Assembly: GCF_018350175.1 (NCBI RefSeq)
Contig: NC_058369.1
Location: 1,116,001-1,180,000, forward strand
Source of the DNA: Felis catus
Taxonomy: Eukaryota
Length of the DNA stretch: 64,000 bases
Direction: 5' to 3'
Of the stretch, positions 34,505-41,400 are shown one piece after another. Every line of letters begins with the position of its first letter. Within the stretch, counting starts at the first letter, position 1. Under the pieces are notes generated by a model, which worked only from the letters and a program-made list of their open reading frames with translations, did not search any database and was not told the origin of the DNA. The translations under genes were made by a program, and so were the position numbers.

Positions 34505-35524
34505 AAGCCGAGGACAGCACGTACCTGCACCACGCTGCCCACGCTTGGTCCCCAGTGCCAGGGCTGTGCCAGGGGACCCCACTCCTGGGGCCTGCAGCAG
34601 GAACTGCCTGGTGCATCACTTGGGCAACCAGGGTCCCCACCTCCCCAGGCCAAGCTGACTTTGGTCCCTGCAGGAATGGTCGGGGGGGGGGGGGGAGTGG
34701 CAGGTCGGGCAGGCAGGGCTGAGATGGGGCAGCCCCAGCCCCAAGAAGGCAGTGGACAGGGCCCCGTGTCTGGGAGGGCCAGAGTCAGGGTGGCCTCCTT
34801 CCAGAGGAATCTCTGGGCTCAGCGACCAAGCAAATGAGCTTCAGTGAGAGAGGAAGGGGGCTGTCTGGGATCTAAATAAACAGGATTGGGGGGGGGGGTG
34901 TCCAGGGAAGGGGGCTTGGCCGAGGCCCTGGTGGCCCTCAGTCAAGCACAGAGGTATGTGCCTCTGCTTGCTAGCCTCCCACCGGCCCCCAGATGCTGTG
35001 CTGGACACCAAACTGCCTGACAGAACCTTCTGGAACTCTTCAGAACCCTCTAGGCCCAGAGGAGCCCTGCCCTGAGGAGGAGGCCACCGTCAGTGGCCAT
35101 GCATGCCTCACGGGTCAGCCCTGAGAACCATGACAGAGCAGCCCTACTCCTCCCTGCACCCCAAATGCTCCCTGGCCCCAGGACTCTGAGTATTTTCTCA
35201 GAGCCCACACAGCCCACCTCCTGGGCCCAGGTCCTCTATCCACCCCGTGCAGGCAGAGCCCCCACTCCCCTAGGTACAGCCCATCTATACCCCTGCCGGA
35301 CAAGGGGTTCCCGGGAGGGGAGGGCAGATCTGAAGACTGCCCGCCCCACCTCCCCGCACACCAGCATGCCTGTCGCCACACCAAGGGGACACACGTCAGA
35401 CCTCACCCTGCCGCCCAGTGTGGCCGCTGATGGCCCTCTCCTGAGGACCACCCCCCAGGGCCTCCCCAGGGAGGCCGGCCTGAGGCCCCGGGTGCTCACC
35501 CGCTACGCCCCACACACAGCTCAC

Positions 35525-35719
35525 CTGGTGCGCAGCGCCTGCCAGGCGGCGTCGATGTCGGCATACAGGTTCTTCTCGGAGGGCTTGCCCGAGCTCACGC
35601 CGTAGCCAGAGTAGTCGTAGGAGAAGATGTTGCAGTTGATGCGCGAGCCCAGGCCGATGTAGAAGCTGCTCATCTGGCCCAGGTCCACCGCGTTGCCGTG
35701 CGAGAAGAGAACCGTGTAC
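35525..35719 (-). CDS. ABHD17A: ABHD17A coding exon
   Basis: 195 nt with [68 protein letters not shown]. Confidence 0.96.
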
Positions 35720-36917: not shown

Positions 36918-37249
36918 CTGGCGCCGGGCACGCAGCGCACGTACATGCAGGAGACGCGGTTGCCCCGGCTGCTCTTGGTCAGGAAGACCTCGATGGTGTC
37001 CAGCTCGCGCTGGCTGTACTGGAAATCAGCACGCTCCATCAGGTGGAGCTTCCAGCGCCCCGGGCTGCCGGCGGAGGCCCGCAGGGTCCCCGAGGGGGCG
37101 GCCCCAGCTCCACCGGGCCCCGGCTCGGGCTCGGGCACCAGCGAGTAGGTAGGCTCCGGCGGCAGGAAGGCGAGCTTGGCAGCAATGCGGCCGGGGCAGG
37201 GCGGGCAGCAGAAAAGGCAGCAGAGCTCGCTCACTGACAGGCCGTTCAT
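36918..37249 (-). CDS. ABHD17A: ABHD17A first coding segment (exon 2 begins at 37439); depalmitoylase with N-terminal Cys cluster
   Basis: [37 protein letters not shown]...YVRCVPGA(R). Donor CAG|GTGAGC; upstream acceptor ttccctctgcag|G at 37440/37439. Confidence 0.96.
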
Positions 37250-38859
37250 GGCGGGCGCCGGGCCCCAGGGCGGGCCTCGCTTGGCAGGGGAGGGGTGGGG
37301 GTGCTCTGAGATGCGGGCAGGGCGGAGGGCAGCCCCCAGCCACTGCCCCAGACGAGAGCCCCCTTAGGAGGCTGCAGCCCAGCCCCATCGTGGTCCAAGC
37401 CGAGCCCTCGGGAGCCTCGCAGCCTTGCGTCTCCACGTCCTGCAGAGGGAAACCCTGGGGAGGGGGGGGGGAAGCGAGAAACGGGGTTCCCTCGGGGTTC
37501 CGCTGGGACACGGTGACCCGATCTTGTCTGTACCAAGCCTCTCGGCCTTCCCCGCAGCCCAGTCCACCCTCTCCCACTCAAACTGGTCCGCTCTCGGCCC
37601 CATGGGCCTGGGGGCTCAGCTCGTCATCCACAGGGACCACGTACCCCCCATATGCCCTTTGTGGGACCCAAAGCCAACCGGACCCCCACCTGCTGCACCC
37701 TTTCCCAGCATGCAGTCACCAACTCTTGCCAGGTAAGCCCCCCCAGTCAGCCCAGCCTCGGCCAGCAGGCTGTACTGGGCAATCAGACCCCTGGCTCACG
37801 CCAGCTCTCCCCCACACAGCCCCTGCTCTGGGCGCAGAGAGACCCCGGTGCTCTCCCTACGCCTCTGTTCACACAGCCGGCCCAGACTCCCCCACCCCCC
37901 CAGCCCATCTCCAGGCCATCCTTCAAGGATTCATCTGCCACCAACCCCAGGTGACACACCGCAGCCAAGGCAAGGACAGACTGCCAACTGAAGGGACTCG
38001 GACCCAAGAGCATGCTCACAGGGGCCGGGCCTCGAGGGGCAGGACTGCAACGTCCAGAGACAGTGGAGCCCAGGCAGAGGAAATACAAGAAACAAAGGCT
38101 CTGGTAACAAAAGCAGGATACATCTAGAGGCTGGGAAGGCCTACTGAGCTCGGACAATGGCTGGGCCCTGTGCTGGGGCCAGGCTGCGGGGGAGGGGGGC
38201 ACTGGAGCCCTAATGGCTTCCTTCTCCAGCTCAACGGAGGGCTCTGTGACCTTGGGCAAGGCTCCTTCCTTCCCTGGGCCTCAGTTTCCTCACCTACTGG
38301 GGAAGACAACACTGCCTCCCACGGGGACTTAGTGAGAAGTAGGTGGTGGACGGGGGGGCGTGGCTCAGAGGCGGCACAGTAAGTCACAGACTACAGCTAA
38401 ATCACTAACAGTCCCACAGGGAGTTGCCAACAGAGACTGTAAGAAATACAAAGCCTTGAGAAAATAACTACTTACTAGGCTTTTCCTTACAGACTGGAAC
38501 GCTCACAACTCACTTTCAGCAGCACAGCACCTTGGCACACGCAGTTTTGGGGCCGTGGCATTTGAAAACCACCGGGCCGGGGACACACAGATTCAGGGCG
38601 GACCAGAGCAGGCTGAGGCCCAGAGACACACGTGCTCCCTCTGGGCCTGTGATCTGGTGCCAAGGTCAGGAGAGAGCCACAGCCACAGCCTGAGTTTGCC
38701 CAGAGTCTGGGCACACAGGAGGGAGTGGGAGGGCCCAGGTGGGGACACCAGGAGGGGACACCAGGCAGCTTCCAGGGTCCCTGAACTCGCAGGTGGGACG
38801 CACACTTTACGTGCAAGCATCCTTTGGAGGACAGAGTCTATCGTACCTGTTCTCAGGTA

Positions 38860-39040
38860 AGAGTTTGTCCCCAGGACACCTGCCAACTCCTGGGGACACT
38901 TTGGGTTGTGACAAGTGGGGAAGGGTGTTCGCATTCCTGAGGGGGTGGGGGCCAGAGATGCTGATGGACGCTCTCCAGAGCACAGGATGTCCTCCCCCAT
39001 TACCCCAAGGGAGTTATCCGTCCCCAAGTGTCAACCAGTC
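38860..39040 (-). mobile_element. MER20-like DNA transposon
   Basis: 'ggggacactttgggttgtgacaag...ggccagagatgctg...cacaggat...ccccaagtgtcaa'. Confidence 0.6.
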
Positions 39041-40549
39041 AACCAAGCCCAGGCGGCTTCAATGTCTTCTCAGATCCAGGGCCAAACAGCAACACTGCCC
39101 TGGTGCTGGGGAAGCTTAGAGGGTCTGGAGTTGGGGCAGCACAGCAAAGACTGCTTTTGAGAGAAGGCCTGGCTGAGAGTCCGTGGGCAGGCAGGAGCCC
39201 CCCGCAACCCGGGAAATGAAGGGGCACACCAAGGTGGAGAAGCCCCACTGCCCAAGCCAGAGACACAGCATGGCATCCTCCGCTCCCCCTCTGCCGGGGC
39301 CTGATGGGTCTCCATCCAACCAACGCCCGGTCCACGCAGCCACCACCTTGCACCTGGACGGCTGTGCGGTCCTGTTCATTGCCCGCCCGCACTCTCCCCC
39401 AGCAGCCACAGGATCCCTCTCCCGGCACAAACCTGAGATAAGAAAGCACACCTTTTCTCTGGACGCCCTCTGGCTTCCTGCCACTTCCAGGTGGAAACTG
39501 AAGCCTTGCCACAGCCTGCCAGGGCCCACCTCTGCGGCCTCACTCCCCCTCGACCTCCCCAGACAAGCCAGAGCCCAGGCAGTTGCCCAGCCAGGGACCC
39601 CCTCCCCGATCTCCACTGGCCAGCCCTTGCCCCCTGTCCTGCCCACCCTTCAGATCAACCTCCCAGCGCCCCTGGAGAGGCCTTCCAAACCACGGGGAGA
39701 TCCCACAAGCTCTCCTGGTTCCAGTCTGTCCCCACAGCACCTGCCACAGCTTGTATTTACCTGTCTGACCACCCCCGACAGCAATCAAAGAGAAACCCCA
39801 TGAGGGCAGGACAGCTACCTGTTCTTATCCAGTGAACCCTGGCTGAACAAGAGAGCAAGTGACAAGAGGTAAAGAGAAAAGAGGGAAGCTAGTCTGCCAG
39901 CTTTGACAGGGAAGGAGGACAGTCTTTTCTTAGGCCATGAACGCCTGGGGCCTCCCGTGCGACATTTATGAGTGTCCCTAGGCATGCCCTGCGAGCGGCA
40001 ATTCGGTCCACGAGCGCGGACTGGGCACTCTGCCGCCAGGCCCCGTAAGGGCTGCTGGTGTTCTGAGCACCAACGAGGAAACAAACAACCGCGATACTCG
40101 AGGATGACCTAAATACGCTCGGCCTGGCGGCACCTCACCCAGCCAGTCAGGGTGGGAAAGCTGCCTGGAGTAAGGTGCAGTCTGAGAGGTGCACAGAAAG
40201 TGACCGAGTGGCAAGGAACAGGGCACTGCAAAACCCCAGAAGTGGCGGCGAGTTCCAGGAACTGCAGATCTCCCTGTCGAGCGGACGCTGGGAGGAAGAG
40301 GTGAGCAGAGGGGTCCCAGAGGGAGCCAGGGCTGGGTCAGGCTGGGTCAGGCCGCGCCCGTGAGCCCTGCTGCAGAGTTTGGACTTCATCCTGGAGGAAA
40401 CGGGGAGCCCTGGAGTCCTGGGCGGAGCATGGACGGGCACCACGGGTTAGGGGCTGCGGTACGTCCCCTGGCTGCAACCTGGAGATCAAACTGGAGCGAA
40501 GACCGGGAAGCCTACCCCGGTGTCCCAGGCGGCCAGAGGACGCCCGCGA

Positions 40550-41400
40550 AGGGGTACAGGCGTCCGGGAGACGTTTAGGAAGGAGGACTCCGCTAAGGGA
40601 TGCTGCGGCGGGCCCGGGTGTCGGGCTGGGGCGGGAAACTAGGTAGAGTCCGCGACTCGGACGGCCCCGGCCCGGAGGCGGGGGCCGCGTCACCAGAGGA
40701 GTGGGCGCTCACCCCACATCCGAGACCTCAAAGGACCGGGGGACAGGGCTCTGCCGGGGTCGCCACGTTGGCCCGCGGTCCCGGTCCCCGGTCGGCGGGT
40801 CCTACAGCCGGGACCGCGGCCTCCCCAGCAGTGAGGGGTCTCGGGGGCGTCCCACCCGGCTGTCCCGGCCTCGCGGGCAGGCCCAGCTCCCCAAACGGCC
40901 GCGGGCGGCACCGAGGTCTCCCCGCGCCGCCGCGCTCGCCCCTGTTCGGCACTCACCGCCGCGGCCCGCGCCCCCCGGCCCCGGGGCCGCGCTCCATGGC
41001 TCCCGGCCGCCGCCCGTGCGTCCGTCGGTCCCTCGGCACCCCGGCCCGGCCTCCTGCGCCGCCGCCGCCGCCGCCGCACCCCCACAGGCGGAAATGAGCC
41101 TCGATCCCGCCACCGCCCCGGAAGTGACGCAAGGTACGCGCGGGGGCCGAGGGGCTGCGGACAGGCGCTGGCGCTGCAGGCGTCCGGGGACCGGGGGGCG
41201 GGCTTGGAGGCGGGGGCGAGCGTGGAGTAGGCGGGGCCTAGTTATGGTTGGTGGATGTGGGCTTGGGGGCGGGCCTGGCTCGCTGGTGGGGCGGGGCATG
41301 GGGGGTGGGCGGGTTCGGCTGCCGTGGGCGGGCGTGGCAGGGCGCGCGGGGCGGAGTTAAGGGTTGCAGCCCAGGTTTTCCGCAGAGACACGGCCATTCA
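40550..41400 (-). promoter_or_regulatory. ABHD17A: ABHD17A CpG-island promoter and exon 1 (~41100 to 40957)
   Basis: Donor GCG|GTGAGT at 40957/40956; ETS-CRE composite CCGGAAGTGACGCA at 41118-41131; multiple GC boxes. Confidence 0.85.

Follow-up and report, generated by a model that had tools for sequence, protein, structure and literature searches.

We studied the 5′ leader of ABHD17A in a 64-kb (kilobase) window of Felis catus NC_058369.1; the window is the whole stretch of DNA that was analysed, and all coordinates given here are positions within it. ABHD17A lies on its minus strand. The gene name was taken from an earlier, sequence-only reading of the window, and the human row in the supplement of the GENCODE catalogue of open reading frames (ORFs) detected by ribosome profiling (Ribo-seq) agrees with it (PMC10032668). 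The leader carries a pair of upstream open reading frames (uORFs) before the main coding sequence (CDS), uORF1 being probably split by intron 1 and uORF2 beginning inside uORF1 (Table 1). The first start codon, AUG1 (40997), has G at both −3 and +4 and thus a strong context. In the second, AUG2 (37388), the −3 base is A and the +4 base is G. Its frame differs from that of uORF1, whose stop codon ends 25 nucleotides (nt) downstream of it; AUG2 is thus nested in uORF1, while the uORF2 which it opens extends 224 nt into the main CDS. At the main AUG (37249), the −3 base is G and the +4 base is A. The sequence-only reading had placed AUG1, the GT donor, the TAA, AUG2 and the main AUG correctly; it had overlooked that uORF1 and the main CDS share one frame and are separated by that single TAA. 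Further hydrolase exons were found downstream near 35700, 32720 and 32415.

Table 1. Features of the ABHD17A leader and first coding exon in the window.
Feature	Position	Strand	Remark
ABHD17A exon 1, without main CDS	40957..41123	−	GT donor after 40957; 5′ end probably near 41123
uORF1, exon-1 piece, 41 nt	40957..40997	−	AUG1 at 40997; human piece likewise 41 nt
Intron 1, GT..AG	37455..40956	−	likely acceptor 37455; from sequence and orthology
uORF1, exon-2 piece, 91 nt	37364..37454	−	TAA 37366-37364; total 43 codons; human piece 91 nt
Alternative AG (acceptor of the sequence-only reading)	37440..37441	−	15 nt downstream of the likely site, frame-preserving
uORF2, 120 codons	37026..37388	−	AUG2 at 37388; stop 37028-37026; overlaps the CDS out of frame
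AUG-free spacer, 114 nt	37250..37363	−	from uORF1 stop to main AUG; open in the main frame
First ABHD17A coding piece, to the exon-2 donor	36918..37249	−	main AUG 37249

The human and mouse RefSeq transcripts begin 126 and 128 nt before AUG1, respectively (supplement rows of PMC4739776). Based on these transcript starts, we infer that the cat 5′ end lies near 41123, that is, 126 nt before AUG1. Motifs which we take, from their consensus, to be an ETS-type motif and GC boxes were located in the sequence at about 41123 and in a row above it, respectively.

We then examined the exon-2 acceptor, which sets the length of uORF1. The sequence-only reading had joined 40957 to 37439, and this splice does give 38 codons to the TAA at 37366-37364, as it had computed. 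Its claim that uORF1 is spliced, with the frame and stop it gave, is supported, but 43 codons through the acceptor 37455|37454 are likelier than 38. The AG ending at 37455 lies 15 nt upstream of the previously chosen one and is the first AG after the pyrimidine tract; the pyrimidine content of the tract is 95% before 37455 versus 80% before 37440, the latter having an intervening AG. With the upstream acceptor, uORF1 comprises 41 + 91 = 132 nt and 43 codons. The exon pieces of the human orthologue are also 41 and 91 nt, giving 43 codons (PMC10032668 supplement), and the same human ORF is listed with 132 nt in two exons by Ji 2015 (PMC4739776 supplement). A search for proteins in the uORF1 frame gave two matches among three candidates, P0005 and P0006, which agree with the cat translation at 28/30 and 25/30 residues, respectively, from acceptor 37455 to the shared stop; the stop position is the same in both. 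Upstream of this acceptor, only 2/17 and 1/17 residues of the same two proteins match. Moreover, the residue that spells the AG at 37440..37441 is altered in all seven orthologous sequences examined (P0001 and P0004 counted as one, P0005, P0006, P0007, P0008, P0010 and human; close relatives may be among them). In P0007 one codon is inserted beside this site. Because of the tract, the human exon pieces, the P0005 and P0006 matches and the altered AG, 37454 is most likely the ancestral acceptor in cat ABHD17A. The AG at 37440..37441 is probably a lineage-specific addition which could serve as a minor acceptor. Both acceptors preserve the frame and the stop, and the architecture is therefore unaffected.

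Human uORF1 corresponds to the GENCODE Ribo-seq ORF c19riboseqorf6, of type uORF (Sandmann 2023, PMC10032668), and it was called translated in two Ribo-seq sets (PMC10032668, PMC4739776). uORF1 is thus not novel in itself; what the catalogue entry lacks, compared with the present reading, is a mechanism and any listing of uORF2. The human ORF resembles cat uORF1 in its 41 + 91 nt pieces and its 43 codons, and a hand count found 31/43 identical residues without gaps, the start, intron position, length and stop all being kept. uORF1 is conserved in mouse as well, with 129 nt and 42 codons (Ji 2015, PMC4739776). In a neutral simulation, AUG1, the open frame and the stop survived together without a frameshift in 7.8% to 0.1% of cases, for assumed distances of 0.15-0.45. 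This low neutral survival argues that the structure of uORF1 is under constraint.

The test for purifying selection on the uORF1 peptide was negative. Between human and mouse, the nonsynonymous rate (Ka) is 0.19 and the synonymous rate (Ks) is 0.22, with Ka/Ks of 0.87 (PMC4739776), and c19riboseqorf6 has PhyloCSF scores of −50 in primates and −329 in mammals with 0 mass spectrometry (MS) studies in the 2023 table (PMC10032668). The identity of 31/43 residues between cat and human is itself expected from base-level conservation (P 0.68 at distance 0.15 and 0.31 at 0.2). It is likely from these comparisons that the uORF1 peptide is unconstrained and that translation itself, and not either peptide, is the function.

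The human entry is labelled 'primatomorpha - young' (PMC10032668). According to the same source, this label reflects a protein-similarity cut-off in non-primates, and the ORF structure was checked in primatomorpha only. Mouse and cat, the latter a non-primate mammal with carnivore-like SINE tails, retain the start, length and stop of uORF1, so the label under-calls its age. The catalogued primate-young uORF is older, and it is an example of how age is under-called for short uORFs.

The searches for uORF2 yielded 2 of 210 candidates and then 12 representatives. Four of the 12 align across AUG2, namely P0001 (with its cluster mate P0004), P0007, P0008 and P0010; the remaining eight were left out, as they match only the CDS-overlapping part or start downstream. 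The AUG2 methionine is retained in 4/4 of these readable mammalian lineages, in ORFs that were called from an upstream start, and the purine at −3 and the G at +4 are likewise kept in all four, as read from the flanking codons. All four join the CDS in the same frame relation, with spacers of 114, 150, 114 and 93 nt, in a sample biased to open uORF2 frames. The spacers of P0007 and P0010 show frame-shifted likeness, indicating that the uORF2 peptide is not conserved. An additional AUG lies inside uORF1 in three of the four lineages, as would be expected if uORF1 shields its interior. The sequence-only reading had proposed looking for conservation of both AUGs, the frame and the stop; uORF1 is kept in human and mouse, and AUG2 in the four lineages of this biased sample.

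For the human canonical leader, a published table gives two uAUG ORFs in adequate context and an Atf4-like score of 0 (PMC12303066 table S4). Two such ORFs fit the nesting, and they also fit a second uORF that ends within the leader. An overlapping uORF for ABHD17A is absent from both human catalogues, which hold one ABHD17A row each (PMC10032668, PMC4739776). This missing translation call would parallel the uORF2 of PLK4, which was barely detectable until uORF1 was mutated (PMC9296005).

Two further features of the cat sequence adjoin the main AUG and uORF2. A third-frame TGA overlaps the main AUG at 37248-37251 on the minus strand (AUGA); if the leader shifted by one base, an upstream ORF would become a stop-start overlap there. 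At 37039 on the same strand, the CDS-frame Met71 codon (C at −3, G at +4) lies within uORF2, and initiation there would yield ABHD17A without its N-terminal cysteine cluster.

We propose, at a probability of roughly 0.5, that by analogy with PLK4 the uORF pair acts as a constitutive dampener of ABHD17A. Most ribosomes would initiate at AUG1 and translate a spliced uORF1 of probably 43 codons, and elongation would take them past AUG2. A minority would reinitiate on ABHD17A at a distance of 114 nt from the uORF1 stop, uORF2 would trap those that leak past AUG1, and the net effect would be a low ABHD17A output. The layout, the translation of human uORF1, its conservation in mouse and the retention of AUG2 in other mammals are observed, while the cat acceptor, initiation at AUG2, reinitiation and the low output are inferred. 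In a toy model with two strong AUGs, each capturing 0.9 of ribosomes, reinitiation supplied 64-96% of the output; with 0.7 capture at AUG1 it supplied 13-88% (assumed values). In the same model, an AUG1 mutant fell below wild type only if reinitiation exceeded the leak past AUG2.

Among the systems compared, ABHD17A is most like PLK4. In PLK4, a strong uORF1 of 30 codons shields an out-of-frame, CDS-overlapping uORF2 from ribosomes (Phan 2022, PMC9296005), and mutation of AUG1 raised uORF2 15-fold and brought the main ORF to background. The same study describes a main ORF translated by reinitiation, a minor uORF2 that buffers leak-through, a constitutive dampening, and peptides that are not the function (PMC9296005). 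ABHD17A shares with it the strong uORF1 ahead of the main AUG and the CDS-overlapping, out-of-frame uORF2. We found a strong, conserved uORF1 that ends before the main AUG, is translated in human, and leaves AUG2 unreachable after it, and the likeness to PLK4 extends to layout and uORF1 translation. The two differ in geometry. In PLK4, AUG2 follows the uORF1 stop by 13 nt, too soon for reinitiation, and is skipped for that reason (PMC9296005), whereas elongating ribosomes would pass over the ABHD17A AUG2 at any ternary-complex level. In ABHD17A, uORF1 is also longer, with probably 43 codons compared with 30, and spliced, and the PLK4 logic is backed by reporters and mice (PMC9296005), whereas ABHD17A is known here from sequence and published tables.

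Other leaders resemble this one in part. In the ORF35-37 mRNA of KSHV (Kaposi's sarcoma-associated herpesvirus), uORF2 overlaps a downstream AUG, and ribosomes pass it by elongation and reinitiate further on (Kronstad 2013, PMC3561293); unlike ABHD17A, that uORF2 has 11 codons, the viral mRNA is bicistronic, and what is skipped is an ORF for a real protein rather than a trap (PMC3561293). TRPM7 also has two conserved uORFs, one nested and one overlapping the CDS, but in reverse nesting, the first uORF being the overlapping inhibitor with a short uORF inside it (PMC4227784). ATF4 shares with ABHD17A a reinitiation-type uORF1 and an inhibitory overlapping uORF2 (PMC9296005), but in ATF4 a very short uORF1 precedes uORF2, and the main ORF is induced through delayed reinitiation (PMC9296005). 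That the ABHD17A layout differs from that of ATF4, as the sequence-only reading had noted, agrees with the position of AUG2 inside uORF1 and with the human Atf4-like score of 0. An ATF4-type switch was rejected, since the inhibitory uORF starts ahead of the uORF1 stop and translation of the main ORF was not spared under arsenite (low counts, one cell line).

Several observations weigh against the proposed dampening. The 349-nt leader has a GC content of 79% and holds two AUGs, with 1.6 expected from its composition, so that the case depends on conservation and not on the cat genome alone. Four independent retentions of AUG2 would occur by chance in 3-17% of cases at assumed distances of 0.33-0.15, and these lineages are not independent. 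Base-level conservation extends over the whole segment (human-mouse Ks 0.22, PMC4739776). The search favoured open uORF2 frames, so the kept frame relation is biased; the AUG2 count covers the four lineages. Reinitiation declines with uORF length (PMC10275272); the half-length for eIF3 loss was 12 codons in one study, while in another eIF3 was retained to 60 (PMC10275272), and by such limits 43 codons is long for reinitiation. In the toy model, 0.7 capture combined with low reinitiation made double leaky scanning the source of most output. Finally, in mouse cells, neither Denr knockdown (Abhd17a translation efficiency (TE) log2 fold change −0.31, p 0.26, adjusted 1.0) nor Eif2d (TE +0.08, p 0.79) had a significant effect. 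DENR acts in some reinitiation events only.

In a simpler explanation, uORF1 by itself acts as a conserved repressor of the ordinary kind. ABHD17A is then made through leaky scanning or on transcripts that are shorter, and AUG2 is carried along as a passenger in a conserved stretch. The catalogues hold uORF1 only, with one row per set, the length of uORF1 disfavours reinitiation (PMC10275272), and the DENR effect was not significant. Besides, uORF1 reads the A of AUG2 as a wobble base, the retention of AUG2 is within the reach of chance, and the role of uORF2 is minor in PLK4 too (PMC9296005). However, two strong AUGs would have to be bypassed in leaky scanning, and AUG2 is retained in every readable lineage, so that we regard this simpler explanation as rather unlikely, though one to be taken seriously. 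The product of uORF1 might instead be a functional microprotein, as the sequence-only reading had suggested, or a sequence-dependent stalling peptide. Positions 26-40 are identical to human in 14/15 residues (hand count), which drift would give in 0.1-7% of cases at assumed distances of 0.33-0.15, and the identities of P0005 and P0006 given above are high. But the 14/15 stretch was chosen post hoc and surrounds AUG2, a base-level element explains it equally well, and the Ka/Ks, the PhyloCSF scores, the count of MS studies and the overall identity with human all speak against a functional peptide. A functional microprotein is thus unlikely, and a peptide-based function as a whole appears distinctly improbable.

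Nonsense-mediated decay (NMD) of the mRNA as the main route of action has a very slight chance of being correct. A stop codon more than 50-55 nt upstream of an exon junction can trigger NMD; the uORF stops lie 446 and 108 nt upstream of the exon-2 junction, that is, more than 55 nt, and more introns follow downstream. Yet no link between ABHD17A and NMD was apparent at listing level in the open-licence literature mentioning both, and ABHD17A RNA is abundant in the arsenite data (1255 reads, PMC4383229). NMD can coexist with the dampening proposed here. Least credible of all, with a minimal chance, is read-through of the TAA into an N-terminally extended ABHD17A that starts at AUG1 and is 82 residues longer. 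uORF1 is in the CDS frame, the spacer is open, and the spacers of the four lineages are multiples of three (biased sample), but UAA is the least leaky stop, 0/63 candidate proteins of 260-2000 amino acids matched the spacer translation (a weak test), and the likeness within the spacer is frame-shifted in two lineages.

The sequence-only reading had called the leader a translational switch, and we also considered whether it might alter ABHD17A output as a switch in the integrated stress response. An in-silico model names human ABHD17A as a target of phosphorylated eIF2α, with a score of 0.726 versus a cut-off of 0.7 (PMC12303066 table S4). In arsenite-treated HEK293T cells, however, ABHD17A coding reads fell from 83 to 9, with a TE fold of 0.11 compared with a median fall of 5.4-fold, so that its translation dropped as much as the bulk or more (PMC4383229); the TE Z of −1.22 versus a threshold of 4 makes it neither resistant nor significantly hypersensitive, at low counts in one cell line (PMC4383229). 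This measurement disagrees with the in-silico prediction of stress induction. Nesting also abolishes the delayed-reinitiation choice used by ATF4, and a stress switch is very unlikely. Without stress resistance under arsenite, and without a significant DENR or eIF2D effect, the word 'switch' is not supported; the shield-and-trap idea of the sequence-only reading stays plausible, having been shown with reporters for PLK4, whereas its switch part finds no support in the arsenite values. Local RNA structure gave no signal, as 0/21 sliding 60-nt windows folded better than shuffles (lowest z −0.57).

ABHD17A depalmitoylates PSD-95 and N-Ras (PMC12303066), so its dose matters. If the proposed dampening is true, the leader would offer an easy handle on that dose: blocking or editing both uAUGs would raise ABHD17A, and its amount would shift in opposite directions with human variants at AUG1, AUG2 or the TAA. 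It would then be a second worked case of the PLK4 logic, in which geometry makes the shield independent of the timing of reinitiation. The layout is real, the dampening logic is already known and uORF1 is already catalogued; this is no new kind of mechanism. A bolder version is improbable: that among cellular mRNAs ABHD17A is the first case of a nested shield, in which a uORF split by an intron and shared across mammals takes ribosomes over a trap AUG. Its output would hang on reinitiation after a long uORF and would drop with more leaky scanning or with eIF2α phosphorylation. In neurons, the palmitoylation of PSD-95 and N-Ras would thereby be coupled to the local state of translation, and the similar uAUG in ABHD17C would suggest control across the family.

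Published supplement rows were used from PMC12303066, PMC10032668, PMC4739776, PMC11790910 and PMC4383229. No paper on the mechanism of the ABHD17A leader was found in the open-licence literature, where c19riboseqorf6 is likewise named in no main text, and ABHD17A is absent from the supplement of PMC10123092 and, in the part covered, from that of PMC12391379.

ABHD17C (L002:1213-1305, G000:C15) carries a strong-context uAUG whose six upstream bases are identical to those of AUG1. This uAUG lies 56 nt below an ETS-type motif and opens a 30-codon uORF that ends 187 nt before the main AUG; the leader has no second AUG. Common ancestry of the ABHD17A and ABHD17C leaders was rejected, as their alignment score of 69 was reached by 70/200 shuffles, and an ABHD17C row is absent from the human catalogue table (PMC10032668). 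A genome search for a retrocopy with the spliced leader returned only the ABHD17A locus and ABHD17C, and a metagenome scan gave 37 loci with best identities of 33-60% and no mammalian orthologue among them. Another locus (L043, G000:C13:30292998-30296123) resembles the first coding exon of ABHD17B at 89% and has a TAG in frame; about 135 nt on there follows a piece similar to the next ABHD17B exon, so that the locus is likely a processed pseudogene of ABHD17B. In the third exon of ABHD17A, positions 35519-35718 have 95.5% DNA identity to ABHD17C over 200 nt, versus 67% in the neighbouring coding part; both genes are very GC-rich here, and convergent codon bias and gene conversion are candidate explanations for this likeness.

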